NCBI GenBank assembly: GCA_013239625.1
Contig: MU053859.1
Span: forward strand, 1-64,000
Length of the DNA: 64,000 bases
Origin: Lama guanicoe
Lineage: Eukaryota
Reading direction: 5' to 3'
How positions within the stretch are numbered: position 1 is the first letter of the stretch; each line of letters begins with the position of its first letter. Of the stretch, positions 5,212 to 54,900 are shown piece by piece. Position numbers and translations under genes: made by a program. The notes under the pieces are model-generated. The model was not told the origin of the DNA and searched no databases. It was given only the letters and a program-made list of their open reading frames with translations.

Positions 5212-6720
5212 TTTTTAATTGAGATATAATTGGAGTACAGTATTATATAAGTTATAGGTGTACAATATAGAGAGTCACAATTTCTAAAGATTATAATCCA
5301 TCTATAGTTATCGTAAAATGTTGGCTATATTCCCTGTGCTGAACAATATACCCTTAGACGTTATTTCATGTATATTAATTTGTATGTCTTGATCTCCTAT
5401 ATTGCTCCCTCTCCCCTCTCCCCACTGGTAAACCACTAGTTTGTTCTCTACATTTCTCAGTCTGCTTTTTTTGTGGTAGTTTGCAGAAGACTCTGAGGTT
5501 ACTGCAACCACCAGTAGGTGAAGCCAGGTCCAGGGGTTAGTGCCGGCCTACCGGCAGGCAGAGCCAGGTTCTGGGCTCTGGTTTCAGGGCCCAGGTATCC
5601 CGGAGCTGGTGTTAGATTTCTGGGGCAGGTAGGGGGTTGGGAGTTGCCAGTTCCTGTTACAATTGTGTACATGGTCCAGCGTGTCTTGAAACTTGTCCTG
5701 GCCTCCTAGTGGGCAGGGCTGGGGCCCAGCTGGTCCCAAGGCAAAGCCGGGCCTGCTGTGGGCAGGTGGGGTCAGCAGGCTATGGCACTGTGGTTTTCTT
5801 GCCTCTGGTGTCTGCCCACTGGTGGATGAGGCTGGTCCAGAGTCTGGAGTGGGCTCCCTGGAGGGCAAAGTCAGGGCCCTGAGAATTCTGGAACGGGCGT
5901 CTGCCCACTGGCGGCTGTAATGGGTCTGGGCCCTTTGGTGGGAGGGACCAGCCATCTCCTGTGGCTGCTTTGGGCTCAGGAGACTTGAGGCAACCTGTCT
6001 GCCAGTGGGTGGGGCTATGTCCCTACCCAGTTGGGTGCTCGGCTTGAGGTGTTCTAGCGCAGGCGTCCTGCGGGCAGGCCTTGACGCTGATGCACTGGAG
6101 GGCGGACCGCAGAACGGCACATTCCAGCTCCGCCAGCATGGAAGAGCCTGTCCAAAATGTCTACCTCCAAAGTCCACGTAAGCAGGACGAGCCACAGCTG
6201 CCCCGCGTCTCTCCAGGACACACTCCACGACCACCAGGTAAGTCTGGCCCAGGCTCTGACCAAATGACTGCTTTCGCCCTGGGTCCTGAAGTGGGTAAGA
6301 TTTTGTGTGTGCCCTTTAAGAGTGAAGTCTCTATTTCCCCAAGTCCTTTCAGAATCCCCAAATTAGGCCCCGGTGGCCTTCAAAGCCGAGTGTTCTGTGG
6401 GCTTGTCTTCCTGGCCCAGGACCCCCGGGCTGGGGAGCCGGATGGAGGGCTCAAAACCCTCACGCTGCAGTACAATTATTCTCCAGGTTGCGGGTCGCCC
6501 CTCCCAGAGTATGGGACTTGGCTATACTGCGGGTCCAGCCCTCCCTCCTACTTGTCTCTTTGCGGTTCCTTCTGCATGTCTTTAGCTGTAGAAGATCTTT
6601 TCCAGTAGCTTCTGATCTTTTTCACTGATGGTTGTTCTGCAAATAGTCGTGGTTTCAGTGTGCTTGTGAGAGGAGGTGAGCTCACGGTCTTTCTACTCCC
6701 GTCATCCTGGCCGATCTCCC
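5212..6720 (-). mobile_element. LINE-1-derived element: GC-rich 5'UTR joined to L1 3'UTR
   Basis: Minus strand begins gggagatcggccaggatgacgggagtagaaagaccgtgagctcacctcctc (L1 5'-end-like) and ends with typical L1 3'UTR (agagaacaaactagtgg...cagcacagggaatatagcc...caattaaaaa). Confidence 0.7.
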
Positions 6721-6991
6721 TGTTGTATGTTAAATTTATACAGCATTTTTTATGATGCTTAATAATGAAATTTTATAGATTCCTCTTAAAATCAAAAACA
6801 AGCAAAAGACGCTCACTCATTGGTACTCTTGAACGCAGCAGAGCCCTAGCCTTTAAACAGTGATACAAGGAAACCAAAGGAAATAAAATCGATTCTGTTC
6901 GTATTTCTTTTTATATAATCAAATTGTCTGAAAACACTGCAGACAGATCTCTTCCATTGGAATCCCTTCCCTTTTATTGTGATCATGAAAC

Positions 6992-7414
6992 TGAAGGAAA
7001 TTAGAATATGTCACCTCAAAATATGCCTTTTTGACATAGGAATTATATTGAGTTGAAGGCACTCAGGGAACAGTGAACGGCAGGAAAATCTCTCCCTGCC
7101 ACTTCCGCCCAAAAAGACAGGATACAAATTCTCCCTTTTACTTCTGTTGGTTTCCGCCCACGGAGTTGCCTTCCCACAGCTGACGGCCCTTGGAAGCCTA
7201 AAACTGCTTCCTTTGTCCGGTCCTGTTCTTTGTAGGAGATGCCACACTAGCTGGAATTCTACCTACCTACCACTTTGAATTCCTCTTTGTGGAGGTTTCT
7301 TCCGCGCGGTGTGACCACAGGCACTAGGAAACTGTTACTAATCTGTTCGTTCAAGAGCCCCAGCTGAAAACCCAGGTTGGGTAGAGTTAAAATTTTGCCT
7401 CCCCTCCCCCTACA
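6992..7414 (+). mobile_element. Solo LTR, ERV1-class (MER34-like)
   Basis: TG...CA termini with exact 4-bp TSD aaac. Confidence 0.75.
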
Positions 7415-8188
7415 AAACCAAAAAACCTCCTGGTTTTCCATTCACTGGGTCTGCTCTACACCTCTGAACAGAGGCGGAGTACAAATGATATCTTTTGATT
7501 TTTTTCTTTCTTTCTTTAAGTCCTTTTTTTTTCTGACATAAAATGTGTGTGTGTGAACCGTCCTCCCAGACTGTTTCTTCATCTGCTAATAATGTGTCAG
7601 ACAGGGGTATCTTAATCATGGATGGAGTTATTACTGTTCCTAATGCCCTAACATCTCCATGAGTGCTGACAGCCTCTCCTTTCTAGTTCATTCTGCTCAG
7701 CGCAAATTAATGCTTTTATCTTGACATTTCCTAGCTCAAATACATTAAAATTCTCTCTGATGATATAGAAAACAATTGATCTGATATTTAAATTCTTCTG
7801 TCATAAAACCTCACGACTTTCTTCTCATTTTATCTTTGATGTATTGGTTTATACATCTGTTACAGCCACTTGTCTCCTCATAGCCCTTTGTACCTCCTTG
7901 ATTTCAACCCCCCGTTAACATTATTTCTGCCTTTTGAGATAACCTTCCTTTTCTTCCCTCCTTCCACCAAGTCTAAGTGACCTCCCTACCCCTCCACTGC
8001 ACATCTGAACGGCTGTAGCAATCAATGGCAAGTACCTTCTTTGTATTTTGTAATATCCTTTATTACTTTAAGCTACAGAAGCTTTTAATAAGTTTCTTGA
8101 TTGATTATTATAGGAGAGGAATAAATGAGTAAGTTTCCGGTTGGGGTTTCTCTGGAAATTTGACCGTAAGTATTTATTTATTTTGCAG

Positions 8189-8252
8189 TTTGCAAGTTGA
8201 TATGCTGTGTGTGTGTGTGCTCTGAGTATTACAGTGGTCATTCTTCTAACAG
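8189..8252 (+). CDS. CLEC2A: CLEC2A putative transmembrane exon (64 nt, out of frame)
   Basis: ttttgcag acceptor, ag|gtgagc donor; 5' part reads CKLICCVCV in phase 1, 3' part reads ALSITVVILLT in the frame joining exon 3; frames differ across (TG)7 at 8206-8219. Confidence 0.6.
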
Positions 8253-11200
8253 GTGAGCGGCTTAACTTATAAACTTTTTCCGGTTCTTCATGGCCAGCAG
8301 ATCTAAATATTTGTATCTCAGTCTCAATTCTGAATGCCTCAGTTCTGAGGTAGTAAAGGGGTTTGTAGAGACTTGTCCTTGTATCCTACCAGTTGGGCAG
8401 CTTTCACTATACTCTTTGCTTCTATTAAAATACTCTCGGAATTCAGTCATGACTTTATAGGATGTCTTGATCTTCGACAAACTTTTTCCGGTTCTTCATG
8501 GCCAACAGATCTAAATATCTGTATCTCAGTCTCAATTCTGAATGCCTCAGTTCTCAGGTAATAAAGGGGTTTGTAGAGACTTGTCCTTGTATCCTACTAG
8601 TTTGGCAGCTTTCACTATACTCTGCTTCTATTAAAAATACTCTCGGAATTCAGTCATGACTTTATAGGATGTCTTGATCTTCGACTAAAATAGTCGTAAA
8701 TTCTCAGATGACCAGCGGATAGCAAGAGCAATAGCTATTTTTTAAAATTTGGGAGTATTTTGTGTGAGTTAAAGAGCTCATGTTAAAGAACGCTATGCTT
8801 TATTATTTGTGTTTAATTCTCACAAGATATGAAACAGATATAGTTACAAAATTCATTTACAGTCAAAGAAATAGAGGCCAGAGTGAATCAGTTGCCTCAC
8901 AAAAAAGAAATTCCAGAGCCAGACCTGAGACTTGTCTGCTAAGTTTCTGTTTCTCTAATTCCTGATATTTTAACCACTGTGCAACACTGCTTCTATAATT
9001 GCAATATTTTTTAAGTTTCTTTTGGATCAAGAGTAAGTTATATTACTAAAAGTTGCTCTATGAAGGATTTGTTTTATCTCTATCACGTTATGTTAAAAGA
9101 AAAAAAGAGAAAGAAGGCCACAAGTGATTGGTTGCAAGATTTCCTCTGTTGGAGTAGATTTGTAAAAATGAAGATGTTTTAATTCTCCTCCAGGCATTAT
9201 GGGTTTACATTTTGAAAAGAATTTAAAGATAGACTTTCATTTCTGAGCCACGGCCTCATAGTTCTCAGAACTTGATTTTCCATCTGCCTTTTTTGCTTGA
9301 TTTAGCTCTGAAGTTGGACTAACACTTAACACCCTGGATTCTTGTTTCCTTTGTCATTTGCAAGGGTTCTGAAATTCTTCCTGCTTGCAGCCTCTTCTGT
9401 CACTCTGGAGTTCTGGGAGCTCAATGCTGTGGATTATTTAGACATCTGGAAGTCAAATATTTATAGGAAGGGTTTCTCTAAGAAGTACTTACATTCATTC
9501 ATTAGTTGATTAGCTGAAAAACAAATGTTGAAGCACAATGTATTTCATTACCTGTTCGTGGTTGCCTGGATCCATTTCCGAGCATTACAGACAAGAAAAA
9601 GTGACGAGAGGCAGCTTTGGAGTTGGCCCTGCATATAAACATTGACTTGGTTCCTTGCTTGTTCTAATTCTTGCCTTTAAACATTTGGAAAGAAGGGACT
9701 TTATTCTGATTACTTAGCACCGAGCTAAAACCCTGAAACAGTAAATTCTCCAAGTAATATACATAGAAATAAATTCATCATTATTGCAGCTTCTTTGATA
9801 CTAAATATCTGTGAAGTAGAATGAATGTTTCACTGACTTGTATGTCAGTGACTTGTCATTTATGGTAAATTTCACTTTCCCAGCTTGGCTGTCCTATCCT
9901 ATCTTTGATCTTTTCAGTTCTTTGAGGTAAAAGTAAGCATTTATTTCTTACCCTGGTCCTCAAGAACTAATTTATATTCATGTTTCCAGATGTCTTCCTT
10001 GAATTCTAAATCTTACGCATTGGTTTTGGTAAGATGTCAATATAGATCATGAGAGGTTAGCAGTTCCATTTCTCAAAATAGAAGCCAGGAAAATAGAACA
10101 AAGTATAAACTGCTTGACCTCTAAATGGTCTTCCTTATGGACAGAGTAATTGAATTCATTCATCATTCCATGAGGGAAGCTAATTTTACAGGCCCCAAAT
10201 CAGGAAAGTAAAAAACTAAAATTGATCCACTAGGATCAGTAGAGAAATACTTTTTAACTGATTTTTCTTATTCAAGAACTGTTTTCAGTATTATTTACAA
10301 AATTTTCCAAATATCCCCAAGCTATGGAATGTCCAGAGAAATGGATTGGTGCAAGAGACAAGTGTTTCTATTTTTCGGATGATACCAGAAACTGGACAGC
10401 TAGTAGAAGGTTTTGCAGTTCACAAAGATCAGAATTTGCTCAGATTGATACACCAGAGGATATGGTAGGAAAAGGGGAATGTTTTCAATCATTTCAGAAC
10501 TTAAGTTTGTACAAAGAGAGAATAGAAATGATAAAAGCTAATACTCTTACGATAATGTTGGAGAGAAAAACAAAATATCCTTTACCCTTCTAGGATCTTC
10601 TGGCTGGTCTAAGGATTAAATTGACATGAGGCAGATTAACAGGAGAAAATCAAATTGAATTACATACATATCGGGGCTCCATGGGAAAATGAGACCCCAG
10701 GATGAGTTAGACAAAGGAGGCTTATATGTCACCTGAAGGAAAAGGAAGAGGGTAGGGGGTTTGGGATTTCAAAGAGGAAGAAAGCAATTCACATGGAGAT
10801 GGAAAGACAAATGTTTGCTATGCCAGACAGAGATGAGGGGACACGGAGAGGACTTTGGTGTCCAGGTCCAGCTGAGTTCCCCCACCGCACAGAGCTTTGT
10901 TCCCTGGTGGCAGTGCTCTTCCTGGCCCTGGCCCTTTGTCTAAGTGCTTTTAGGCAGTTAAGCAGGAAGTAAAAACAAAGACTTCTCCGCTCCTCTCTTT
11001 CCTAAATATAATCAGCCTAAAATAATCCTCATGCCAAAGAGACACATTTTGAGGTGACACACATTTTGCTCCCTTACAGTAACATACGCCACACAGTGTT
11101 TTAGGCACTGTAACGTGCCTAACTCCGGTAATCTTCAACCAATGTCTATGAAGTCGACATTTAAATGTCCTTGTTTTAAAGATAAGGAAAGTGAAACAGA

Positions 11201-14200
11201 GATGGATGCCATCCAGGTGTTGTCACACGGCCATAAATTGTTGAAGTGAGATTTGAACCCTGGCAAGTTAGCTAGTGATGTTATGTCCTTAGTCACAATG
11301 CGTATGGTTTATATAGCTAAATGTCTTTGTTCAATGTTCTTAAGTTGTTAAATACTTTTTAGTAACTTCCCATTTGCATTCTGCCAAGAATAGCCTGGAA
11401 AAAATGAAACAAAACAAAAAAAGATTTGGCTCTTGGAATTTAGAGAGGAGGATTGGGAGGAAGTATGCACGATTTGAAGAAAGGGAGGCAGTCAATGGAA
11501 GACGTAAACAGGGCAAAGAAAGAGGGACGTGGACTCCAGGGGCACAGGGTGACGGAGAGCTTTGTTTGTATGTAAAGAAAAGCTGACTAATAGGTTTGTG
11601 GTCCAATAGCAAGGAGCTGGTAGAGGAATGACTGTGGAATGATGGTGCTCAATGTATTTTATTACAATAACTCATGTTCACCCAGAAGTTAGATTTCTGA
11701 TTATATGAGAAAATATGCAATGGCAGTAACATTCTATGTTTCCTTCCAGTTTTATTGCAATATAATTGTGTAAGTTTAAGGTGTATGGGATAATGATTTC
11801 ACTTACATGTATCATGAAATGATTGTCACAGTAAGTTTAGTGAACATTCATCCTCTCCTATAGACACAAAATTACAGAAATAGCCATCTTTTTCCTTGCG
11901 ATGAGAACTCTTAGCATTTACTCTCTTAACAACTTTCATACACAACACACTTATCACATTGTACATTACATCCCTAGTATTTATTGATCTTGTAACTGGA
12001 AGTTTGACTACCTTCGTCCAGTTACTCCTCCCCCCATCCCCACCTCTGGTAACCACACATCTGATCTCTTTTTCGATGAGTTTGTTCGTTCGTTCGTTCG
12101 TTTTTGAAGTATAATTGACCTGCAACATGTTAGTTCCCATTACACAACAGAGTGATTTGGTGTTTCTACACCTTTCAAAATGGTCACCAGGATAAGTCTA
12201 GTTAGATATGTCACCATCCAAAGACATTACGTGGTTACTGAGAATATTCCTCACTCTGTACGTTTCATACCTGTGGACTTTATTTTGCAGGTGGAAGTTT
12301 GTACCTCAATCTCAACTGTTTCTCTCCTCTCCCCATCCCTCACCCTTCTGGCAACCGCCTGTTTGTTCTCTGTATCTAAGACTCTGTTTGTGTCTTGTTA
12401 TGTTTGATAACTTGTTTTGGTTATTAGATTCCACATGTAAGTGAAATCATTCAGCAATGACATTTGTATTCTGATATCTGCTCGGAGTAGTTTCTGACTG
12501 AGTTTTCTTATTATAACAGTATTTATACCATTAAGCCCCTCTCCCCCTGGAAGATTTTTGGGCGAGGAATTGTGCACAGAACAAGATATAAGCAGTAGTT
12601 CTATGTCACCCTTAGAGAACTCATCAGCTCCTGATTTTGTCATCCAGATATAACATCCTGTCGCTTCAGAGTCTTTATCATTCACTCTGTGACTAAAGCA
12701 TACTGATGCTTTATGCATTAGAATTTGAAGGAAAGGATGTCAAATATATTTTTCTCATCAGTTTCTCATTTGAGTGCTAGAAATTACCTTGAACAGTAAT
12801 TCAAGACATTGTAGCTCAGAGAGTTCCAATGACCTGATGAAAGTCACTCTATTACTTAGAGATGTTTAAGAAGTTAAAAAGCAAAGTGAAAATCGTTCTG
12901 ATAAAACTAACCTGAACATCACTGTCTGCTTTTTGTTGCTATGGCAGCATTAGGGCATACAGATTAAGGTCTAAATCATAAAAGATGGGATGGTTGGAGT
13001 GAAAAGCATGTTCAGCAGTGGGCTCTAAAATATTAAGTAATGGAGAATTCTCTGATTTTTGTGAAAGAAATTTTTGAAGATGTGCACAGGAACTTCTATG
13101 CACTGGACTGGACTGAGCAGAGCACTGGGAGAGTCTTGGAGATGGACAGATGGCACTACATTCAATGCCTGGTGAGATTCAAATTTAGTAGGAAACGTTT
13201 TACTCTGGTGCTGGATAAAAAAATTTAAGTCATTTTGAGTTGTATTATTATAAATAAATTTTCCTATTTTCTATATGTCATTACCTCCCTCAGTTTCCAC
13301 CCTGTGACACGGGTCCTCTCACACTGAAACATATCCTAGAACAACTCACCTTCCTTCTGTGTTGTTATATGACATACAGTGAAATTTTCCTTTTTTGTTT
13401 TTGTTTTTGTTTTTGTGTCTTGTTTTTAGCACCACGCTCTTGCTAATAAACTCTCCTTTTGTTAATTCAAATACAACTATTCTGCAAATCCAAAGCCAAA
13501 CCCTATGTATTATTTGCACCTTTTTCTAACTAAATTTATGCAAATCTCTTTTTTCTTTTAAGAGTTAGAGGCCATATAGTTGTCTTTGACTTTACAGTTG
13601 CCCATTGTAAGCAATATTATTTATTAATGTAATCATTTCTTGAGTGAATGTTGTTTCCTGTCTTATACACTTTTTTACTTGAAAACAAGAGCTGTATGAA
13701 TTTTCTTTTGCATCCATGTCTTCTTTCCTTAATATTTCATTAAGTGCTAGATAAAAAATGACAATAAACTTAGAAATCTGTAAGACGGGACAAATTACAC
13801 TTATTATAAAAAAAATAAAAATTTGGTCATCAGCAGGACAAATTAACAAACTATTATAATTAGTCTATTTGGCTTCTATCTAGTATATTTCAAAAGTACC
13901 AGGTGAATATAAATGTTTCTTACTTTCAAAAAGGAACATCGGCTAAAAATACAGCAGGTAATATGCCAGGAAACAGCTTTAAAAAAATTCCATAGATCTT
14001 TATATTTAGAAACACTATTTCTCTTAATAGAAATATACATAGATAAATGTAGATATATAGACATATTTATATCTATGATTTATCCATGTCTATTTATATT
14101 TCTGCCTACTGTTCTAACAAAGTTGCAGATTATGCTAATAATTATAATAGTATTAAATACCTATGTTCTGTCTTATATTCCTTTAATGTAGCAGACATTT

Positions 14201-14453
14201 TGAGGGTAGAGTATGGTGATGGGCTCAGTGAAGTGATGAAGCTTTATGTTTTGTATAAAATGTTTCATATTACTCAGTTCTTAATCTGATTTTTGATTAC
14301 AGCTGTAGGTGTTTCCTAAACTGATTTCAATGGTTTCTTTTCAGGTTTGAAATTAGCGGGAATGGACTGTTTGCTTTCCTGAACACCGATGGAGTTTCTA
14401 GTTCCAGGGGACTTGTTGATATCAAGTGGATTTGTAGCAAACCAAGATTTTAA
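8189..14453 (+). CDS. CLEC2A: CLEC2A (KACL)-like C-type lectin gene, exons 2-5; exon 1 not identified; putative TM exon frameshifted, so possibly a pseudogene or null allele
   Basis: Spliced CTLD CPEKWIGARDKCFYFSDDTRNWTASRRFCSSQRSEFAQIDTPEDM/KFLKMCTGTSMHWTGLSRALGESWRWTDGTTFNAW/FEISGNGLFAFLNTDGVSSSRGLVDIKWICSKPRF* closely matches human KACL as recalled (DKCFYFSDDTRNWTAS, SRGFIDIKWICSKP), including absence of the second CTLD Cys pair; lies tail-to-tail with KLRF2. Confidence 0.85.
8271..8685 (+). repeat. Tandem duplication, about 208 bp x2, in CLEC2A intron
   Basis: Units 8271-8478 and 8479-8685 (aaactttttccggttc...gatcttcgac). Confidence 0.95.
10289..10464 (+). CDS. CLEC2A: CLEC2A exon: stalk and CTLD part 1
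   Basis: gttttcag acceptor, atg|gtagga donor; LFTKFSKYPQAMECPEKW...TPEDM; phase 1 to 0. Confidence 0.9.
10556..11078 (-). mobile_element. Solo LTR, ERV1-class (MER34-like), in CLEC2A intron
   Basis: TG...CA termini, near-TSD ataa/gtaa; 5' end shares tgtcacctcaaaat with the 6992 LTR. Confidence 0.7.
11745..12470 (-). mobile_element. LINE-1 3' fragments
   Basis: Typical L1 3'UTR antisense motifs ending tagattccacatgtaagtgaaatcat; boundaries approximate. Confidence 0.7.
13068..13171 (+). CDS. CLEC2A: CLEC2A exon: CTLD part 2
   Basis: tgaaag acceptor, tg|gtgaga donor; 104 nt; KFLKMCTGTSMHWTGLSR...TTFNA(W). Confidence 0.88.
14345..14453 (+). CDS. CLEC2A: CLEC2A last coding exon
   Basis: ttcttttcag acceptor; FEISGNG...KWICSKPRF, TAA at 14451-14453; AATAAA at 14452 and 14524. 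Confidence 0.9.
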
Positions 14454-28700: not shown

Positions 28701-30981
28701 TAGAAGCATCCTGGCCAGACCACTTACCACACCACTGACAAAGTCAAGTAATTTGATACTCAGATAATTGTCTGCCAATTTTAGTTAGTTTATAAATAGA
28801 GAAACGCTTAATTCCACTACCTTGGTTACCTTCTAAGTCATAGTTTTAAAATGCTATTTCTCAAATTGGGTAATAAGTGGATGTTTCACTTCAATTAATT
28901 TTGATGGACTTGGTATCACTGATAATGTCTATAGTACACACTAATAGGATGTGCTGTAGGCAGTAAAACTTCTTAAATGTGTTGCAGTGTTGTCTGCATT
29001 ACAGAATAAATCCAGAATAAGTTTCTATTTTTCCCTCTTGCCTGTGGATATTTCTTCTGCTCAAACAGAAGTAGAAAGACCTCTACTTAGCCCCAAATCC
29101 TCAAAACACATTTTTGCAATTTTATGAAAGGATAGAAATCCCAGGCGCATGGCTCTGCAATTAACTGGTTCTATCTCTGCCGGAGAGGGAAATTTTAAAC
29201 TCTTGGCCAAATAATATTATAGCTATAAATTAAAAATCAATATTCTCTTGCACAAGCCGCAGTTATAAAATGTATCAGGCCAGGTACCTGGAATGCACTG
29301 CCCTGGTCCATTCTAGCCAGTTGCTGTTGGCCCGCGTGGTTCAGTATTAAGACATTGCTCTTTGAATCCCATTATTATCACTACTCAAGAGCACTAATTA
29401 TGTTACTCACATCCGATTTATGATAGGAAGATTTCCTTTCTGGATTTAGCAACAAGATTAATTATATCCATCCTAAGCAATAGGTGTAAATTTGTATCTT
29501 GACAGTGTGAGCCAAATAAGTGCTCAGGTTTCTCTTACTCATCAATAGTAAGGAAGCTTAGAAACCAGTTGACATCAAACACAGACATACTCAGGGTATG
29601 CAATTTTTGCTGAATTGCAGGCTTAATTTATGCTGCCAGTCTTACTCATCTTTCACTCATAATTCAAATGGACGTTACCTGGTGTTCTGTGTATTTATAC
29701 TCAGATTTCATGTCTTCACTCCCTTTCTATTATAAGATGGTTTATACATTAAAGAGCAAATAGTTAATAATTTAATGTCCACATTAAAAACAATCACACT
29801 ATAGATTTGCTTTTTTATTGAGTTTAAGAGGAGAAAAAATAATTGCCAAAAGCCACGCACCTAGTTTAGGGTCCAGTTCAGTCAATTTGATTCCAATGGT
29901 CTTAGTTTTCATTACAGCAAAGTTAAGTTACTAATGAAAAAAGGAAGTGTTGGTTCCTGGCATTGAAACCGCAAAAGGGACCCTGAGCCTTCAAATGATG
30001 AGAAAATACCATGTTTCTGAAAAACAATGTTTTTTGAATTTGCAAGATGGAAACTGAGATAGTGTGTGAGAATGTCCTGCAATCGTGTATGTGGCAGAGC
30101 TGCGGTAGTGACCAGCGAGTCTAAATTTTTGACCCATGTCATCCCGGCTGAGATCTTGGCTGTTTCAACAGAATTATTTAAAAAATTTATTTTGGACAGG
30201 CTGAATTTAGACACCAGTATTGTTTATTAAACTTGTCTATAGATCTGAAATAAAAACCCAAAACTAAAAACAACCTTGTCGCAGATACAGCAGCCTCAAA
30301 TGACAGAGATAAATGCTTTCTTTTATTTTGCCCTTCTCTCGTTCTTAGTGGACTGTTCTGCCAATCTCATGTATCTTTTGTGAAGATTGAAAAATACAAT
30401 ATGTATGTGTGTGTGTGTGTGTATGTGTGTGTATATATATATATATGATTTTTAAGCTGTAAAACACCATAGCACCCTTGTTACTTCCCCCATCAGCCCT
30501 AGTTCTTTACCTTCTGAGTGAAATAGATACCTTGTAGATATGTAGATAACATGTATGTAGATAACATAACCTAGTAGTCGCTTCTCCTTCTTATGTTTCA
30601 TAGAAGTAATTTATATAAAAAATACTATTTTCGACCTTTCAGTTGAAAGTTACACTCTTACTCATATGCTACTACTTTGAGGGGATTATAAATCATCCTA
30701 TTAGCATTTCTCTGGCTCTTGTGGCTGCAAAAATCGAGTTTTCATTGCTGATGCTTACATGAGCCTCAACAATTGATCTTAGACAACTTATGAGCAGCTT
30801 TTAAATCCCAGAATACGGTTAACTTTAACACTTTAAAGATTTCAAAGATAGTTATTCTCTTAGGAGAATAATGCAGTTTTAAACTGAAGTCTGAATGCAG
30901 AGGAGCAGTATTCCTACCTTTAGACCTTTTTCTGGATTTGAAGTGATTCTTCAGCATCATTTAGCCATCTTCATTCTCCAT
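16589..30981 (-). CDS. KLRF2: KLRF2 (NKp65) gene, 6 exons; nonsense at codon 7 (hemITAM Tyr); 190-aa frame open from Met at 30960
   Basis: Exons 30918-30981, 27657-27755, 22779-22826, 19123-19271, 18741-18856, 16589-16706, all GT-AG and phase-compatible; motifs MENEDG, LYxQYxCLLL, KKMDFSQ, VYSEDC, GICQRDA match human NKp65 as recalled. Confidence 0.9.
16866..17255 (-). mobile_element. LINE-1 3' end
   Basis: Poly-T followed by L1 3'UTR antisense motifs. Confidence 0.75.
18741..18856 (-). CDS. KLRF2: KLRF2 exon 5 (CTLD 2)
   Basis: ctctatag acceptor, gtaagt donor; EFTQKSLKLGHPSWIGLYMISPGKQWMWINEHLFMEQK. Confidence 0.92.
19123..19271 (-). CDS. KLRF2: KLRF2 exon 4 (CTLD 1)
   Basis: ttccttcag acceptor, gtgagg donor; NNFVCPEDWLWNQGKCYMFSTFSKTWNERQRDCAKLQAHLPVIQNSEEL. 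Confidence 0.92.
21069..21718 (+). mobile_element. MaLR LTR (MLT1-like)
   Basis: tgtggt...start; aataaatt...gtggcaatttgttatac...gaaaactagcaca end. Confidence 0.65.
22180..22630 (-). mobile_element. ERVL LTR (MLT2-like) with internal (TG)n
   Basis: gacctTcaacggattggatggggcccacc and ccagccaagttcacacacaaaattaac motifs. Confidence 0.7.
22779..22826 (-). CDS. KLRF2: KLRF2 exon 3 (stalk)
   Basis: tgcag acceptor, gtaata donor; 48 nt; FKKMDFSQKENITSLA(G). Confidence 0.85.
23600..25440 (-). mobile_element. Old LINE-1 ORF2 fragments
   Basis: Degenerate translations (STVWCWH, YGIRRLNIVK, LNIYTASDRASK) resemble L1 ORF2; boundaries approximate. Confidence 0.7.
26037..26092. repeat. (ATCT)n(ATCC)n compound microsatellite
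   Basis: Direct reading. Confidence 0.85.
27657..27755 (-). CDS. KLRF2: KLRF2 exon 2 (transmembrane)
   Basis: tttcag acceptor, gtgact donor; 99 nt; DVPLYLQYHCLLLVFVCIGILIIITAVIGLDFW. Confidence 0.88.
30918..30981 (-). CDS. KLRF2: KLRF2 exon 1 (cytoplasmic) containing in-frame TAA at 30963-30961
   Basis: ATG GAG AAT GAA GAT GGC TAA ATG ATG CTG AAG AAT CAC TTC AAA TCC AGA AAA AGG TCT AAA G|gtagga. Confidence 0.88.
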
Positions 30982-36800: not shown

Positions 36801-39800
36801 GTTGTGTCAAATTCCAGTGTTCAGCACAATTTTTCAGTCATTCATGGACATATACACACTCATTGTCACATTTTTTTCTCTGTGATTTATCATAACATTT
36901 TGTGTATATTTCCCTGTGCTATACAGTGTAATCTTGTTTATCTATTCTACAATTTTGAAATCCCAGTCTATCCCTTCCCACCCTCCACCCCCCTGGTAAC
37001 CACAAGTCTGTATTCTCTGTCCATGAGTCTATTTCTGTCCTGTATTTATGCTTTGTTTTTGTTTGTTTGTTTGTTTTTGTTTTTGTTTTTTAGATTCGAC
37101 ATATGAGCGATCTCATTTGCAAATCTCAAACTCCCAAATTTATCCCTTCCCACTTCCTTCCCCACTGCAGCCAAAAGATTGTTTACTACGTCTGTGAGTC
37201 TGCTTCTGCTTTGTAGATGAGGTCATCAGTGTCCTCCTTTTTTCTTTTCTTTTTTTTTAGATTCCACATATGAGAGATATCATATGGCATTTAAAGCTTT
37301 CTCTTATTCAATTTCTGTTATAAACCAGATCTGAAAATGTAGCACATATATATCCTTTAATTAAAAAAAAGTGTTATTTAATGCTCAGTCTCTTAACGTC
37401 TGGATTTTAAAGTCCCAGAGTGTCATTTCCACCACATTCTATTGGTCAAAGCTAGGCACAAGACCAGTTCATACTCAAGTGTTGGGAAACACAGTAGACC
37501 TCTTGGTGGGAGGAGTAGCAGGATCCTATGTCAAAGGTGGGGTGGACACAGAGAGGCATGATTCTTTGGGGGCCATTTTTAACAATTTGCCACAGATGAG
37601 AACAACAAATTGTTAGCTGAAAACATTATAATATACAACAATGGGCACATGATGATTGTATTCATTCAAAATTATGTGTATTTGGCAGGGAGGTTATATG
37701 TGTAAAAATGGATTAAAGAGATATATGGATGGAAGGGTGTTAATGTCTCCAAATAGTGTAAATTTAGATTTATTTTAATTTTTTTTATACATCCACTAAG
37801 GAAAAAAAAATTGTTCAGCAAAAAGACCAACTAGTTCTTTACTAGGTGAAAAAGACAGAAAGAATAAATGTTCTCAATATATTTATAGTCTGTCTTAAAA
37901 TAGCTTCTATAATTTTTTACATTTCACAAAATTTTACAATAAGGATAAATACCTTATAATCATATGAAATAATAAAAATGTTTCATTTCAAACAACTTAG
38001 GTACTATATTTTTTCCTAAATGGACACTAATAAAAGAAAAACAATTCCTCATCATTTATTCTGTTCTATTGAATTTGCAGATGAAAGAATACAGAACCAG
38101 TAAAAAAAAAAAAAAAGGTGACTTGTCCAAGTTCCCTTTGCTCATTTGTGGCAAAAATCTCAATCCTAAATCTTTTAATTGTTTATTCTGTGACCTTTCC
38201 GATATACCATGCTGTCTATCCTTTAAAGTAAACTTTTTATTAATTATAGAGTAGATTTTCTTAGAAATATTCAAGGGAGGTTAGAATGTACTGATATTCC
38301 ACCACAGGGGAGGGAGACTGGAGGCCTGGAAGGTGACCCCAGGCCCGAGAAAATTCTACTCGAAAGAGTCATATAGATTTGATTGCTTGGACTATGGTAG
38401 TAAAATCCGTAATAACATCTGGATTGGCTATAACGATGTTCTGAGAAATTTCAGCCAAAAGGAAAAACCAGGTTTCTTTTCCATATGACAATGAAGTATG
38501 TTTTCTATCATCTGCTTGTGAACTATCAGAAAAAAATTGCCTAAAAAGGTTTGTTAGATATGGTTATGAATGCAAATTTAGTCTTTCTTTTACCTGTTTC
38601 TTAATCTATTTTTTTTCAGATATCAAGGACACATGCAAGAAGTACAGTGCCTGTGCTTTTATATTAGCAATACTTTTAGTTGCTAATATTGTTTTAATTG
38701 TTCTTCAAGGTGAGTACATTACATCCTTTATTTCTTCACTTACATGTTCCTTTTTCAGGGCTATCGTATGATCCTTTTTCTTTCTGTTTCAGTCATAAAC
38801 TTTTTTCTCAATATTCTCACTCCCTTCCCATTATCCATGATACATTTAATGTGTATCCATGGATGAATGATTACGAATTAATTACATGACCTACATAAGG
38901 CATGGAGAGATGTAAAAATGATTATGATGAAATTATTCACCCTGATGATCTCACCTTCCATACACTATCTCCATACCAGTGATAACCACCATCTTGACTT
39001 CTATTGCCAAAGGTTAGTTTTGTCCACTTAAATTTTTTCATGTGAATAAAATCATGCAGTTTTTATATATCCTTTGCCTCTTTCTTCTTTTATTCCACAT
39101 TATGCTTGAGTGATTCGTCTATGTTGTAACATACAGCAAAAGTTCATTGAGTCACTGTAAGAGAAGGATGGAAAATTTTTTACGTGAAGGGCCAGATAGT
39201 AAATAATTTAGGCTTTGCTAACCAAATGATCTCTGTTGCAATTAGTCAGCTCTGTATTTGTAGAGAAAAAAAAAAAGCCACAGAATACACATAATCAATT
39301 GAGCATGGCTATGTTTCAATAGACTTGAACATGAAAATTTGAACATTACATAATTTTCTCATGTGACAACATATTATTCCTCTTTTGATTATTTTTAAAT
39401 TATTTTTTATTATTTTGATTATTTTAACATGTAAGAACATTTTTACCTCCGAATTTGGCTTCAGGTTGTCGTTTGCAGATGCTTCCTGTGGAGTATTCCA
39501 TGCTGTGTATTAAATTGTTAATGATTCTACTCTTGATGGACATTTGGATTGTGCCACATTTTGACTACTGCTAAATGTGCTGCCTTGAACATCCTTATAT
39601 TTTTAGTCTTTTAGTGAATAGTGGATATCATTTGGGTTATATTTATGAGAAGGATTATTGAGGCATAGAGAATGCAGAGTCAGTTTCTGTAGACAATACC
39701 ATAGATAGTAGATAATCCAACCAAAAATGTCTGCAAAGGTCAGCTGCTCAGCATACATGTCAGCACTTTGTTAGTTTTACCCATTTTAGACATTCTGATG

Positions 39801-42800
39801 ACTGAGTGAGTGTGTTGGTACCATATTGTGACTTTGACATTTTCTTGATGACCAGTAATATTGTTAAGCTCCTTTTCATATTTATAGCTCATTTAACCAT
39901 AACGTTTTGTGATGGACACGTTCAAATACTTTCCCCACATTTTTATTAAGCTAGCTCTCTTTTTTGTTGTTGTTGTTTGATTCGTAAGAGTTCTTGTGTA
40001 TGCTAGAAGAAAACCTTCTGTGTATCTGTCTTAAATATCTCCTTCCATCGTGAAGCTTAGACTTCTGTATGATGTCTTTCAATGAACAGAGTTTTGTAAT
40101 TTTAAAATTGTATGTTTTTCTTTTTTCTTTTCTCTCTATTGTTACGACATTTTGCATCCTGTTTAAGAAATTTACTGTATTCTAAAGATATGAAGATATT
40201 GCTCTAGAGTTTCTACTATAATATTTTATTTAACTTCACATTCAGAGGTACAATTTTGAAATTGATTGTTAATGAATGTTAAAATATAGAAATCAAGATT
40301 TATACAGATGTGTATATATATACATATATTTAATTCAGCTAGTCTTTTAATCTGGAATAATTTATTGAAAGTCCAGATTTTACAGTTACTCCTGGTGTTG
40401 TACTTACACTGAGTCTGGAAAAATTTATAAACCTGTACCCATCCTTATGGTATCATACAGAGTATCTTCATTGTCTTAAAAATCCTCTCTGCTTTACCTA
40501 ATTATCTGCCCCCTATCCCGTCCCCTGACAATCACAGATCTTTTTATTGTCTCTGTAACTTTGTCTTTTCCAGAGCGTCATATAGTTGGAATCTTACAGT
40601 ATGTGGCTTTTACAGATTAGCTTTTTTCACTTAGTAATATGCATTTAAGGATCCTCTGTGTCTTTTTATTTCTTTTTTGCCCTGAATAATATTCTACAGT
40701 CTGGATATACCACAGTTTATTTATACAATTACCCTCATTGAAGGGCATCTTGGTTGCTTCCAAGTTTCAGCAATTGAGAATAAGACTGTTAACATCCACG
40801 TGCAGGTTTTAGTGTGGACATAAGGTTTCAACTCTTTTGGGTAAATACTGAGGAGTGCAATTGCTGGATTATATGATAAGAGTGTGTTTAGTTTTGTAAG
40901 AAACCACAGGACTGTATTCCAAAGTGCCTGTACAATTTTGCATCCTCACCATCTACGAATGAATATTCCTGTTGCTCCACGTCCTCACCAGCAACAGGAA
41001 ATCTAATATGTGTCTTATTAGTTATATATTGTTTTATTATTTTCATTGCTTTCTTAGAGACTAAAACACATATCCCAGATTTATAGCAGTCTAATATAAA
41101 TCAGTCTTTTTATTACAGTCAGATAACGATAGAATTTCATTGTATTTCATTTACCCAGAATCGGTAAGTGACTTCACACGAGAGAAATCACAGTTTGCTC
41201 TAAGACGGCCTATGTATCACTGAGTTTGAAGTTGAAAGGGATGCGGGTTCCCTGTCAAATTCTGCACTGCTGTCATTTAACTTAGCAGGAGTTTGTTTTT
41301 TAGCTTGTTATGTGACATAGTTATATAATTCTGACCATGATCATAATCTTGTACATCACAATCTTGTCTTTCTTCAATGATCTCAAAACACAATGATGCA
41401 TTACTTCATCTGGTCCTTAAAATATGTATTTGTCTTATTTCCAGTTAAAATAGCTCAAGGTGCTAGGCACTATTGCCCGGATAATTGGATTGGTTCCAAA
41501 GATAAATGCTACTATTTTTCTAAAGAAGAGAAAGATTGGAATTCTAGTAGATACAACTGTACCTCTCAACATGCTGACCTAGCTGAGATCGACACTGCAG
41601 AAAAGATGGTAAGTAATTTAAAATGCATTCCTTATGAATTATATTGAGTAGAGACACCGGAAATATTCAAATGTCATTATGATTTTAAAAACTTTCCAGA
41701 CATGCCTGTCTATATAGGCAGAATGTTGAAGATGTTCAGAATATGCCACGGGAGATACAATCGAAAAGCCCAGTGATGTTTTGTTTGGATAATATGAGAC
41801 TTACATCAAGTAGTGGACCTGAGAGCTAACTTTTGTGTTTTAAGGGATATAAAGAGAAGAGCTTGATAATATTTTGAAACTTTTTAAAATCACAAAGAGA
41901 AAATTGCCTCAGGAAGAATGAAATTCTCCGTTTCACACCCTTTGAGGAAACTTCCTCTGACTTCGCAGTCTTGCTTTGCTGTCTCGGGGGTCCCGCGGCA
42001 GCCTCCCCGTCCCACTACCAGCAAGGCAACAGATGTGTCCCTGCAAGTTTCCCCCGAGGCTGAAGTACGAGTTTCCAGAGTGCAGACACCGTATTTTATT
42101 TGAAATTGTGTCCATTGCTGTAGCATAAAGGCAGGCACAAAATAAGAGCTTAATGGATCTTCGCTGAATAAATATTGATTTACATAGAGAAATTTTATAA
42201 GTCAGGAGCATCCCCAAGAACTTTCATACGGGACTGTGAGACTCTGTACCACTGCGCTTGTGAAATCTGTTCTTTCCCTGGGTGACTTACGTGGCAAACT
42301 TATGTTTTACTTTCGTTTAGTCTCTTTAAAAGTCAAAGGTCAATGTAAGACATAATTAGCTTAGTTAAAATATTTGTATGTGAATAATGTGCAATTAAGA
42401 TGTGTTTAAGCGTAAAGCAGCACAACATAGCAGTCAACACTGTTAAAAGAGAATTGTGTATTACTTTTATGGTGAACAAAGTACATTTATGTAATCTACC
42501 TGAGAGTTGGTTCAGACTTAAAATAGATATGAACTAGGTTGCGGCAATTTATAGATCACTGCAAAGAAACTTTACAGAAGCAACAAAAGACATGGAAATC
42601 TGAATAAAATGTGAAAAACTAGGTAGAGAGCAGACACAGCATATAAGTAAAATGTAGGCTTAATTTAATAGAAATAGCTTCTGTTGTCAATAATTTCACT
42701 GTTGAATTTTACTAGAGTCTTGAAATGAACGTTCTGAGAAATCCTTAAACTTTTACACTTCCTTTTGGGGAGAAAAAAAGCTAAATTTGCAGTGAGATGA

Positions 42801-45710
42801 AAAAATAATGAGTGACAAACAGAATGAGGTCTTTACCTCATACGATATCTGTTGACAGAGGGTTAAAAGTGATGTACAGAGGAATTTTAAAGGACACTTT
42901 ATTTTAAATAGTTTAATAAAGTATTATATATGTTTACTTACATTGCAAAATACTAATTTCAGTTACAATGAGATGCCACTTGTTTCATGAAATTTTTCCC
43001 ATTTTATTTGCAACGATTCGGAATTATGTTGCCTTTTTAAGAAACAGCGACATGGTCTATCCTTTACTGAGCAAATAATAAGCAATATTTCTCACAGGAC
43101 ATGCTCTAGGAAATACACCTCCCATTTTCTTGTCACCAAGATCACAACTACTGAACCTCATCCAGTTTTCCCAATTATCTGGTAACATGTATCCTATTGG
43201 TTTCCAAAGCATTTATCCTTTCTTACATTTTTTTTTCTGCCTTAAAACAAGCTCCCTGCTACAACTAGAGGATGAATTTTCCTTTTCTCCCTGGATGTCT
43301 GTGTTTATCATGGAATCTTCTGCTCTTCCCTTCCAGATCCATCTCTGAGAGCACGTGCTATGGGAAAGTCTCCCAGAAAAACTCAGATGATTCTTCCTGT
43401 AAACTAAAATTTCCCTTTGTGTTTATTTTACTCACAATCTTCTCATCTAGTAGAATACTTTCTAACTCTACGTTTACATAAATTTCCTCACTATAATTGA
43501 AACCCTGTGAAGCCAGGGACACTGCTTTATTAACCTGTTCCTTTGTAAACCCACAGTTTACTCCCAGTGAATTGAATTTTTTTAAATAACTTCATGAAAT
43601 GCTATAGAAGATGGTATATTAAAATGCCAAAGTTTACCCAGTGTTATTATTATCAGTTAGGAATGGACCACAGTGTTGTGATCTGTCGTAATTCCTTTAT
43701 ATTTATCATAAAATTGAAACATGGAATGATACAAGGTCAAGCTTATGGTTTCCCAGCTATTTAGTGGCAGAACAGACTGAATAACTTTCTGTGTATAATA
43801 TAATTTTATGGTGAAAAAAAGGAGGGGTCTAAGGTAGCAAAAAGTTTCAATATTGAATGAGTAAGGAGAAAAGGAGAAATATCAGGAAAAAAATAAATTT
43901 TTCCCTGAATGGTATCTTCAGAAATCTAAAAGTTTAACCAAAAAAAAAAAAAGAATTTTTGAGAATTAGATTCTAAAGGAACTGGATAAATCATGTGTGC
44001 ATGTGTGTGAGCATGTGCCCAAGTGTGTGTGTGTGTGCACGCGCGCACGTGCCTGTGAGAGTTTGGGAGAAATTAAAGTAAAATATTACATTAAACTCAA
44101 TATACTAGTATTTCCTGGGAAGTGAAAAAACATTATTTAAAATATCTGATGATTAGGAAGACTGTGCAAGGACTCAGCTGAAAATTCTAGCTTTCCAGGA
44201 GTTTACAGTTTAAAAATCCTGGAGGAATAGATTTTCAACTTGAATATTTACCAATTTAGAATCAAAAGTATCAAGAAAAGTGATCTCATGGCCTTTTTTT
44301 CACATATGAGAAAACTGAGGCTCAGAGGGTAAAATGCTTTTTCAAGGTCGCAGACCTATTTTGTGGTAAAGCCAGGAAATGAACCTCTGTCACCTTACTC
44401 TTCACAACCTGCAAAGCGAGAGGGACGTGATAAGTTGTAGTGAAAACTGACCAGTAAAATTATGAAATTTATTTTGTCTCTAAAGGAGTTTCTTATGCGC
44501 TTCAAGTGCAGTTGGGATCACTGGATTGGGCAAGTTAAGACGGAAATTCAAACAGGACAGTCGATTGATGGAACTGTATTTAAGAATTGGTGAGTTTCTT
44601 TCTTTCTGGGACTATTTAAACTTATGTAATGTAACCGCCTCCACAACCTGTCCTTCAGCTCCATTTCTCTAGTGGCCACAATCAGCGTGCATGTAGGAAA
44701 AATGAACGAGGGAAGATGTAACATGGATTGAGATCCGTTCCAAGAGTCAGCCAGAGAGGCTGGAAAACAAGACATAAGGGGAAAGACCTCTTAGTTGGTT
44801 ATTTTGAAAATAAATACCTGAGATTCATATACCCAGTTTAAAAAAAAATTAAGCTTTTGCTTGATTTTAACCTATTTTCTCCAATTTTATAGCTATTCTG
44901 CAAGCTTTATGCTACCTATTTGCTGACATCTCTTACAATTCAGATTACATTTGTTTATTTTAACCTGCTTTTATTTGCACTGATCGTACAGTTTATCCTG
45001 GACTTCAAACCTTCCATTTTACAGTATGGAAAATTGGATCTGAAGAACTGAGTTCACGGCACACATGACCCCAGTATAACCATCCCAAATGGTGACTGCC
45101 GGCCACTTAGCCACTTAGTTTATATTAGAATTTCTCAGTAACAGCACAGCTGACATTCTGGACTGAATAATTCTTTGCTGTGTTGAGGGAGCACTTTCTT
45201 GTGCATCATAGGATGTGAACAGCATCTCTGGGCCTCTACCCACTGGATAATAGCAATTACCCCTGCCGCGCTCCACTCGTGACAGCCAAAAATGCCTCCA
45301 GGTATTTCCAAGTGTCCCTCGCAGGGGTGGGTGGAAGGCAAGATCACCCCGGGGTTAAGAACCACTGGTTTATAATACTGGTGGCTCCACTCGTTACATG
45401 TAACTTTATGTCAGTTTAACAAATATAAATTCTTGGAAGGGAGACTCAGTTTGGTACAGACATTAACCCTAGCAAGAGAAGACTGTGTCACAGCGTATTT
45501 TTTCAGAACTCTGGGCAGATAATATTTTTTTAAAATATGGCATTGACAAAGGGAGAAATCACAGGACTCCCTAGTACATAATGTTTAACTTTTTATTGTA
45601 GGGATCTTGCGACAAGAAATGAAATATGTACTTACCTTAATGAAAATGGTCTTGCAACAGCCAGATGTTACACAGAGAGGAAATGGATTTGCCAGAAGAA
45701 AATAGGCTGA
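33777..45710 (+). CDS. CLEC2B: CLEC2B (AICL) gene, 5 coding exons, 180 aa, open frame
   Basis: Exons 33777-33852, 38620-38709, 41445-41608, 44486-44589, 45602-45710 sum to 543 nt; KCYYFSKEE.DWNSS.YNC..QHADL, KCS.DHWIG and ATARCYTERKWIC match human AICL as recalled; tail-to-tail with KLRF1. Confidence 0.92.
34755..34890 (-). mobile_element. tRNA-derived SINE in CLEC2B intron 1
   Basis: attgaacccagggcctcatgcatgctaagcacacactctaccactgaactata, same family as 1114-1230. Confidence 0.8.
36567..37292 (-). mobile_element. LINE-1 3' end with a younger L1 3' end nested at 36759-37112
   Basis: Inner 14-bp TSD tcatttgcaaatct (36745, 37113); outer TSD aaagcttt. Confidence 0.85.
38620..38709 (+). CDS. CLEC2B: CLEC2B exon 2 (transmembrane)
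   Basis: ttttttcag acceptor, gtgagt donor; 90 nt; DIKDTCKKYSACAFILAILLVANIVLIVLQ. Confidence 0.88.
38940..41000 (-). mobile_element. Old LINE-1 fragments with MER58-like DNA element at about 39165-39485
   Basis: L1 antisense motifs; aagggccagatagtaaata...ttaggctttgc is MER58-like; boundaries approximate. Confidence 0.6.
41445..41608 (+). CDS. CLEC2B: CLEC2B exon 3 (CTLD 1)
   Basis: tttccag acceptor, gtaagt donor; KIAQGARHYCPDNWIGSKDKCYYFSKEEKDWNSSRYNCTSQHADLAEIDTAEKM. Confidence 0.93.
44486..44589 (+). CDS. CLEC2B: CLEC2B exon 4 (CTLD 2)
   Basis: tctctaaag acceptor, gtgagt donor; EFLMRFKCSWDHWIGQVKTEIQTGQSIDGTVFKN(W). Confidence 0.9.
45127..45368. mobile_element. hAT-Charlie MER20-like element
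   Basis: gacattctggactgaataattctttg...ggcctctacccact...gtgacagccaaaaatg...ttaagaaccactg. Confidence 0.7.
45602..45710 (+). CDS. CLEC2B: CLEC2B exon 5 (CTLD 3)
   Basis: ttattgtag acceptor; DLATRNEICTYLNENGLATARCYTERKWICQKKIG then TGA. Confidence 0.92.
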
Positions 45711-51805: not shown

Positions 51806-51914
51806 TTAATACTGGCAGATCCATTTGAAGACACTGCTGCAGGTTTCAGAATAAATTCTGTTTTCCTTGAGGGCAGCACAGCTGTTCTCCTCAGCTGGTC
51901 CTTTTATAAAGAAT
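51806..51914 (-). CDS. KLRF1: KLRF1 exon 6 (CTLD 3)
   Basis: cttctgcag acceptor; FFIKGPAEENSCAALKENRIYSETCSSVFKWICQY then TAA. Confidence 0.95.
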
Positions 51915-54900
51915 CTGCAGAAGAGAAGAGGAACACATTGTTCATCGTTGTCGCTGAGAATATCCATTTGTGTTTTCAGTTGACACTTTCCCTTAGTTAA
52001 AAGATAATTCAGGTATTCAAGGTATGTTTTAATACCTTGACTCACTGAACATTTCACTGTCTCTGAAATTTAGTATTACTGTCTATGATTGGCAGAGAGT
52101 TCCCGGAGAGTGTGTTTGCAAATGACAGAGTTCAGAATAAATGTGTGCCCATAGTCCTATCCTCCTTTCCATTGTTCCATGTCATCCATTAGATTAAAAA
52201 CTGAGATTAAGGCAGGAAGGCATAGCTCCGTGGTAGAGCACACGCTTAGCATGCACGAGGTCCTGGGTTCAATCTCCAGTACCTCCCTTAAATAATAAAT
52301 AAACCTAAATTACCTTCCCACCCCCCCAAACAAACAAACTGAGATTAAGTCACATAGACAGCTCACTTAACCTTCTTGGTTTCTCACAGCTAATTGTACA
52401 ATAGAGATAATATTTACCTCACGTTATTGTTATAGAAGTTAAATGAATTGATGTTTGTAAAGAACGCAATACACAAACTGACCCAGGTAAGCCCGAAATA
52501 AATTGTACATTTATTGAATGACTTACTCATAAAGCAACATGTCAAATACAATAATAGAGTTATCTATAAAATACTGTAGTATTAGTGATTTATTCTGTTA
52601 GGAATTGATTTAAATTGAGGAATAAGTTCAAGGAAGTATTATGGAAGAGGTACAGATGATCATCAAAGCGTCTAGATTAACAGTAGAAAAGAAAGGACTG
52701 AATTTTCGTATTGAAAAATACACTGTGCCCACTTCTAGATTCGAATTTTGATTTGAATATGTTTGAACAAAAATCCCTAGGCACGGTCTAGAGTGAAAAC
52801 TCAATTCTAAAGGCAGAGCTGAGTAAATTTGGCACGAGAAGAAAACGTAGGTTAGGATCCTTCTAGGTAGCTGATCGGGTAGCGCTCAGTGATACAGCTC
52901 TCCCCTCAGGTAACGCACGTCCGCGATTCTGTTCTCCATTCCAAATAATGTCCTTAATTGACCTCCTTGGATTGGTGAATTTAGGGCAGTGAGATAGAAA
53001 GTAAGCAATATTTAATGATGAAATAAGGCTGAAGGGACAATAACAGGACAGTGTACAGTAAGTTGGTTACCATAGTGAATAAGTTTCTTATCACTGCTGT
53101 AATAAATTACCACAAATCCAGTGGCTTAAAACAACCCAAATTTGTTACCTCACAGTGCTAGGTATCAGAAGTCCAAAACTGGTCTCAAAGGATTAGAATC
53201 AAATGTCTGCTGAGCTGCCTTCTGCAGGCACTCGGGGGAAATTTGCTCATCCCCTTTTGCAGCTGCTCAAGGCTGCCTGTGCTCCCTGGATACCAGTCAT
53301 ATGACTTGGACTTCTGTGTGTATCTTTATATCTCCTCTGACCCTGCCCCTACTCACTCCCTCTTATAAGGACTCTTGTGATTACACTGAATCCACCAAAA
53401 TAATCCAGCATAATACTTCTATCCCAATATTATTAATTTAATCACATTTGTGAAATCTCTTTGCATGTAAGGTGATGTATTCACAGGATCTGGGGATTAG
53501 GCCATGGACATTTTGGGGGGACCATTATTCTACCTACCAACATAGAGATAAGATTTGAGTTTACTAGTGAACATATTTGTATTTCTAATTAACTATTTGA
53601 TTATAAAATTAACACGAGCACACACAAACATTCATAAAATTTTAAAAATCTCAATAATCTCATGCAACTGTTGAGAGAATTTTGGATAATTTTGTTCTGT
53701 CTTGTATTTCTTGTTTGTTTTTTAACATTATTATAATTGCACAATACAAACAATTGTACACATTTTTTAAATTACTAAAGATTATTTTTAAAAAGCATTG
53801 AGAACTTTGAAAACAGAAAACTACATTGGTTCAATCCACCTTTTCATAGAAATTGTGTGTAGTTTTTAAACAATAAGTGCACAACCATTATGGTTTTCAA
53901 ATTCTTTTGCTTGGAAAACCAAACCAAAATATCCATCGTTACTCCAGCGAACATTAAATTAATTTTCATCCTTTGAAATTCTTTAGTCCCAAGAACTATT
54001 TCTGAGTTGATTTTGGTGGACTTATATTAAGAAGATAAGTTCCATGATAGACAATAAAATCAGATTGCCTTCCTGGAAGGACTCACATCTTTGGATCTAA
54101 TGGAGAATCATCCACCCAGGTCCACGTCTTCTTCAGGGAGGTAAAGTTAAGTCCAATCCACACGTAGTTTGACTGTTTTAGAGTTTTCTGTATAAAAGCC
54201 TAAAAAGTGGGTGATGAGTAACTAAATGAACAGAATATTTTAGCAATTTACATACACTAAGTAAGATTTTAGAATTTTATTAGACAACTAACACTCTTGC
54301 ATAAGGATTCTTATACTGATCAATTCATATCTTGTTCACACATACATTATATATTATATAAGTACACTTCTTGCAAATTGAATGCAAATCTTCAGACCAG
54401 AATTAGCGTGTTTTAAGTGGGGCACTGGCTGTGTGCACAAAATTTCAAAGGACACCAAAAACTCAGTAATCAAGATTAAAAGAAAATGTAATGAAAAGGT
54501 GGGAAGAAATTAAATGAATTTAATGAATTTAATTTAATGAAATGGTGGGAAGATAAGCTATTTTTAACTGTAAAGAGGCTAATGGCATAACCATGAGACT
54601 CAACCACTTACCATTTCAAGTTGGTCCTGAATAATTAGTAGGTGAGATTTTCTTCCCAAACAGTATCCATAACTGTCATTCCAACTTTTCATCTCATTAG
54701 AGAACCAATAACACTTTTCTTGATATTTGAGCCATTCTGAAGGGCACATTGCTATAAAATTAACAGTGAGAATACTTACATGTTGCAGGAAAAAGAGTGG
54801 ATCAATGATAAAATCACTCATAACAACGTGTTCAGACTCACAAGGTGTCCAAAATACAAACGATAATTCATGGGAATTAAGGAAATTAAATTAGTAAAAC

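Follow-up and report, generated by a model that had tools for sequence, protein, structure and literature searches.

Probable joint decay of the linked KACL and NKp65 genes, CLEC2A and KLRF2, in South American camelids

We analysed a 64,000-nucleotide stretch of Lama guanicoe DNA (contig MU053859.1, positions 1 to 64,000; hereafter the window), which carries CLEC2A (encoding KACL, a skin immune ligand), KLRF2 (encoding the partner receptor NKp65), CLEC2B (AICL) and KLRF1 (NKp80). CLEC2A shows the features of an orthologue, as it lies tail-to-tail with KLRF2 and beside CLEC2B and KLRF1, and its best protein matches are CLEC2A. The exons covered by our control check, CLEC2B exons 2-5 (38620..45710, plus strand) and KLRF1 exons 2-6 (51806..58726, minus strand; exon 1 was not located), have open frames and canonical splice sites, indicating that the damage described below is specific to the CLEC2A-KLRF2 pair. 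CLEC2B exon 4 (44486-44589) is open, with WIGQ replacing WIGL and the usual second Trp missing. Across some 2.2 kb of further coding sequence in the four genes, no frame-breaking indel was found, which argues against a noisy assembly. Upstream of CLEC2A, a gap of 853 N (3200-4052) has a 1,424-bp duplicate on both sides (1777-3199 and 4059-5482; 99.4% identity), probably two haplotypes that were assembled as a false duplication. All the DNA-level lesions rest on one assembled haplotype.

The transmembrane (TM) exon of CLEC2A (exon 2; 8189..8252, plus strand) is 64 nt long, is flanked by a polypyrimidine acceptor, ttttgcag, and a donor, gtgagc, and contains a perfect coding (TG)7 microsatellite on Cys-Val-Cys codons (8206..8219), in agreement with an earlier note on this DNA that had described a 64-nt exon with good splice sites and a (TG)7 run. 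The note had also described the remaining TM exons of the four genes as phase 1-1, with lengths divisible by 3; measured here, those of CLEC2B (38620-38709, plus strand), KLRF2 (27755-27657, minus strand) and KLRF1 (58726-58628, minus strand) are indeed phase 1-1 and 90, 99 and 99 nt long. Entered in phase 1, the CLEC2A exon reads CKLICCVCVCSEYYSGHSSN, and the hydrophobic ALSITVVILLT sits in a different frame, which carries a TGA at 8198..8200. Translation thus reproduced the frame conflict between the two halves of the exon and the TGA that the note had reported. When exon lengths were computed for repeat lengths 3-10, only (TG)5 and (TG)8 gave multiples of 3, the two lengths that had been proposed to restore the frame. 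Among one-site changes, no AG acceptor (8130-8235) and no GT donor (8200-8300) rescued the frame with the hydrophobic stretch preserved.

The peptide that five TG units would be expected to encode, AVCKLICCVCALSITVVILLTVLF, occurs in P0001 and P0022, two Camelus models whose accessions (UniRef n=4) carry the labels C. ferus and C. dromedarius; the Camelus exon is in frame and 4 nt shorter than that of the window. The in-frame product of (TG)5 length predicted in the earlier note is therefore seen in RefSeq models of Camelus. In tblastn, the two halves of 8189-8252 matched P0001 and P0022 in two different frames, so that the alignment with orthologous TM exons that the note had called for places both halves on the Camelus protein. 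These matches back an assignment that had previously been inferred, and they support the identification of 8189-8252 as the CLEC2A TM exon. We accept the earlier proposal that the frameshift arose by slippage of the TG repeat, and the Camelus product fits the (TG)5 length. The expansion by 4 nt would have taken place on the lamini side, with the camel codons deduced from protein alone.

Ruminant orthologues start the same TM exon with CKL, and a Cys-x-Cys motif is found in the TM exons of orthologues (LCMC in ferret, LCVC in colobus, and LCMC or LCVC in raccoon dog), from which it follows that the repeat grew on ancestral Cys-x-Cys codons. Five runs of at least (TG)7 occur in about 63 kb of the window. 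Since (TG)7 stands on Cys-Val-Cys-type codons common to the orthologues, the repeat itself is unremarkable. A tandem duplication of about 208 bp with 95% identity occupies 8271-8688, beginning 18 nt past the donor of the TM exon. Ruminant CLEC2A TM exons differ by in-frame indels of about 5 residues between close species (P0012/P0151, P0016/P0150, P0009, P0031), and two reindeer CLEC2A models likewise differ by an in-frame TM-exon indel of about 5 residues; this variation marks the exon as indel-prone across even-toed ungulates.

The other CLEC2A exons located, also on the plus strand, are open. The first exon used by camel models (6090..6237; 148 nt, phase 1) is intact and distinct from the ancestral exon 1; ruminant CLEC2A models use a first exon and peptide alignable to this camel-type exon. 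The ancestral exon 1, with which the alpaca model P0066 starts, had no match in the window; it may lie upstream of the window or within the N gap, and P0066 and the orthologues suggest that it would also end in phase 1. The camel-type first exon is contained in a GC-rich block (5483-6720; 58% GC, 36 CpG), which we take to resemble an antisense LINE-1 5' end; if it is one, a retroelement may have supplied CLEC2A of even-toed ungulates with a first exon or promoter. Exon 3 (10289..10464), which starts in phase 1 and encodes the stalk and the first part of the lectin domain, exon 4 (13068..13171) and the coding part of exon 5 (14345..14453, ending in TAA) have open frames and canonical splice sites, leaving the frameshift as the sole truncating lesion in the gene.

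Joined as assembled, exons 1, 2 and 3 yield a 101-residue product with no hydrophobic helix (best 19-residue hydropathy 0.96 versus 2.97 for camel). Exon 3 is read out of frame in this shifted transcript and the binding domain is not retained, as translation ends within exon 3 at a premature TGA (10380-10382), 82 nt short of the exon end and ahead of most of the lectin domain. An early stop of this kind in a five-exon gene is a standard target of nonsense-mediated decay. Splicing of exon 1 to exon 3, by which the TM exon is skipped, keeps the frame and leaves no hydrophobic segment; the best 19-residue hydropathy of the TM-less KACL forms, made by such skipping or by initiation in exon 3, is 0.69-0.77, versus 2.97 for camel. 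As a type II membrane protein, KACL can reach the cell surface only by way of its TM helix. By the established behaviour of type II proteins, neither the frameshifted nor the exon-skipped form would be expected to reach the surface.

We compared the lectin domain of the window with those of 32 hand-picked non-camelid CLEC2A proteins, using lectin-domain numbering from Met; 33 had been chosen, and P0039 was dropped because its anchor motif failed, although it likewise has L and WIGL at the two altered columns. L38F (codon 10435-10437, exon 3) and I61T (codon 13107-13109, exon 4) fall in columns that are identical in 32/32 non-camelid orthologues and in camel and alpaca. I61T turns WIGL, described in the available text of PMC3819593 as forming the core of the lectin domain, into WTGL and so disrupts the core motif. 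Of the features of a functional KACL, both the in-frame TM helix and the WIGL core are thus absent from the window. Exon 4 also changes an NGT sequon to DGT; N75D (N in 31/32 non-camelids) and K28R are common to the window and alpaca. The window differs from the alpaca model P0024 at 3 of 117 lectin-domain residues, two of these differences being radical, and from camel at 11. Camel CLEC2A keeps WIGL and the NGT sequon, with changes of its own at conserved columns (F93L, P115S and D20E).

At the 68 columns conserved in at least 90% of the reference set, the window deviates 7 times, camel 6 times and alpaca 5 times. For the same columns, the 10 ruminants score 0-2 and the median over the 32 non-camelids is 2, with 4/32 scoring 5 or more; the abundance of ruminants in the reference set biases this count in their favour, and the count is a protein-level measure, not dN/dS. 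One of the four is the raccoon dog, in whose family KLRF2 is not among the functional KLRF genes listed in the available text of PMC11484026. The locus therefore combines inactivating mutations with relaxed constraint at the protein level, as seen in lineage-specific loss.

KLRF2, on the minus strand, is damaged as well. Its exon 1 (30918..30981, 64 nt) reads MENEDG-stop-MMLKNH, in which a TAA (30961..30963) occupies codon 7, the position of the hemITAM tyrosine. Tyr7 of the DGYxxL hemITAM is essential for NKp65 signalling (PMC3819593, available text). This feature of a functional NKp65, DGYxxL with Tyr7, is absent here and the TAA stands in its place. Our orthologue sample comprised 15 sequences of the 19 listed, and codon 7 is Tyr in 7/7 of those with exon 1 (three New World monkeys, two fruit bats, sengi and tamandua); the other 8 came without exon 1, and no camelid or ruminant exon 1 was in the sample. 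Exon 1 of the window is two codons shorter than in the orthologues. The codon-7 stop is the sole truncating lesion in KLRF2, as exons 2-6 (27755-27657, 22835-22779, 19271-19123, 18856-18741 and 16706-16589) form an open frame with canonical splice sites, and two in-frame ATGs follow the stop. No camelid KLRF2 protein was present among the 10 representatives of the 19 members listed. In the available text of PMC8750074, the annotated dromedary KLRF2 ran into CLEC2B and had to be corrected by hand, an overlap that is compatible with a model avoiding exon 1 and proves nothing; in that of PMC6614441, dromedary KLRF2 is listed as encoding an activating receptor, with no pseudogene label.

Database models of camelid CLEC2A were examined for the fate of the TM exon. 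Exon 3 of the window is 91% identical to Camelus CLEC2A. The TM exon is absent from all three alpaca RefSeq accessions, two of which correspond to P0024 (117 aa) and one to P0066 (125 aa), and no full-length lamini CLEC2A was found among 110 hits of 113-363 aa. Querying with the first exon alone gave camel P0001 only (one of two candidates) and no lamini product of exons 1 and 2. Two dromedary RefSeq models from different assemblies disagree, in that P0022 includes the TM exon and P0023 skips it; this difference may reflect a second out-of-frame length or an annotation choice only. TM-less CLEC2A models exist also for sheep, buffalo, panda, whale and horseshoe bat, and since buffalo has both TM-less and TM-bearing models, the alpaca models are no proof of a frameshift. 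A search of sequencing runs with 6750-14900 listed 24 runs, 17 of which are DNA runs (7 studies, 5 organism labels) holding 0.78-0.88 of the sampled words; none of the 24 is an RNA run holding this segment. Pattern scans of metagenome contigs for the host CLEC2A exon and for KLRF2 exon 1 gave 0 matches each, and one supplementary file each of PMC6614441 and PMC8750074 contained no CLEC2A variant data.

Collectively, these findings suggest that the KACL-NKp65 (CLEC2A-KLRF2) pair is probably decaying jointly in South American camelids, with the TG expansion as one lesion among several; the pair looks as if it is being lost together, not switched on and off. Loss of either partner would relax selection on the other, and under such relaxed selection the two-unit TG expansion and the core substitutions could have drifted in. 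Any variation in repeat length would then be neutral. With one truncating lesion per gene and the remaining exons open, any loss must be recent or incomplete. The elevated divergence in Camelus as well hints that the relaxation began before the camel-lamini split. An in-frame allele on the present haplotype would, judging from the sequence, restore a damaged ligand for a receptor unable to signal. The class that fits best is lineage-specific loss within the NK complex, as known for KLRF2 and CLEC2A in carnivores. No published report of either camelid lesion was found in the literature searched, whose coverage excludes subscription journals.

Intact KACL and NKp65 alleles might nevertheless persist in South American camelids, the dead versions of both genes, within 23 kb of each other, having been co-inherited here on a segregating null haplotype. 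The 3/117 residue differences between the lectin domains of the window and alpaca mean that distinct haplotypes or species forms exist, the dromedary models P0022 and P0023 differ in TM exon inclusion, and a common human NKp65 variant sharply reduces function (PMC12349009, available text). Set against these points are the missing TM exon in all three alpaca accessions, the lack of a full-length lamini protein among the 110 hits, and the K28R and N75D changes that alpaca holds in common with the window, and we regard a segregating null haplotype as unlikely. It would be the more valuable outcome, as alpacas and llamas would then be natural knock-outs in which to test the role of the pair in skin immunity.

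A composite of other ideas has the repeat length segregating on both sides of the camel-lamini split and flipping membrane KACL, with an NKp65 restarted after the stop acting as a binding, non-signalling decoy in South American camelids; this we consider quite improbable. If true, it would amount to a natural genetic dial on NK/ILC3 skin surveillance in livestock, giving knock-out, decoy and wild-type combinations in one livestock species.

Repurposing of the two genes is a very doubtful proposition. Here KLRF2 would restart to yield a binding, non-signalling decoy NKp65, for which the two in-frame ATGs past the stop and the open exons 2-6 offer material, and CLEC2A would persist as a TM-less product, made by exon skipping or by initiation in exon 3; the splice from exon 1 to exon 3 is in frame, as in one dromedary model. 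At the first of these KLRF2 ATGs, however, position -3 is a purine and position +4 is G, a context that disfavours leaky scanning, and the TM-less KACL forms lack a hydrophobic stretch and with it any membrane or secretion route.

We attach still less credence to an assembly error, in which slippage of the assembler within the TG repeat would have hidden an in-frame allele. The gap and the probable false duplication lie 3-6 kb upstream, and (TG)8 is one unit from (TG)7. Yet any read is far longer than a 14-bp run, the roughly 2.2 kb of further coding sequence is without a frame-breaking indel, the TM exon is missing from the alpaca models too, and an error in the repeat would leave the KLRF2 stop and the core substitutions unexplained.

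The remaining alternative is a selected slippage switch, in which the repeat changes among 5, 7 and 8 TG units often enough to maintain on and off alleles of KACL. Camelids show both in-frame and out-of-frame lengths, the exon-skipping dromedary model could reflect another out-of-frame length, and the NK system offers precedents in MICA A5.1 and KIR2DL4 9A/10A, as the available texts describe them. AC/TG is among the least mutable motifs; for human dinucleotides, the available text of PMC3622297 gives a change point at 4.67 repeats with 2.16% polymorphism and a slope of 0.292 above it, from which we extrapolate that about 10% would be polymorphic at 7 repeats. We find this the least credible of the readings, because 7 units lie just above the threshold for human microsatellites, where the human values allow variation and would be far from a fast toggle, because the two lengths seen so far belong to different genera, and because the KLRF2 stop at the signalling tyrosine and the altered lectin core leave neither the gene nor the pathway intact.

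The physiological role of KACL-NKp65 is still open according to the available text of PMC3819593, and KLRF genes are absent from mice (PMC11484026, available text). If joint decay of the pair is fixed, camelids would represent an independent, recent loss in which both genes can still be read, which would help to date the co-loss of a linked receptor-ligand pair, and annotations that list CLEC2A and KLRF2 as coding would need correction.

The closest point of reference is the human KACL-NKp65 pair, whose genes lie 3 kb apart and tail-to-tail (PMC3819593, available text). The guanaco genes have the same orientation, with stop codons about 2.1 kb apart, the same layout for the exons located and a hemITAM-type first exon in the receptor gene; they differ from the human pair in that the TM exon of the ligand is out of frame and the receptor codon for Tyr7 is a stop. 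With Camelus CLEC2A (P0001 and P0022; XP_032329403 and XP_031299982), the window shares both the short TM exon and the first exon, whereas the Camelus gene is in frame and (TG)5-equivalent, as judged from protein alone. In carnivores, KLRF2 is missing or non-functional in several families and CLEC2A is present only in some species; according to the available text of PMC11484026, sea lion and elephant seal yielded no KLRF2, and the functional genes given for dogs and wolves do not include it. The camelid case resembles this loss in being lineage-specific and in striking the same pair, and differs in concerning another order and in that both genes are still in place, each bearing a single truncating lesion.

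MICA A5.1 (MICA*008), as described in the available text of PMC7047279, is likewise a ligand of an NK receptor and is frameshifted in a TM exon that carries a microsatellite. MICA A5.1 is, however, a proven common allele that keeps its upstream ectodomain and is GPI-anchored and active, whereas the shift in KACL removes the ligand domain because KACL is a type II protein. Similarly, in KIR2DL4 9A/10A (PMC6288254, available text) an NK gene has its reading frame set by the length of a simple repeat within its TM exon, as is the case here; that system differs in that the repeat is a mononucleotide run, the polymorphism is proven, the ectodomain is retained and a splice variant rescues the frame.
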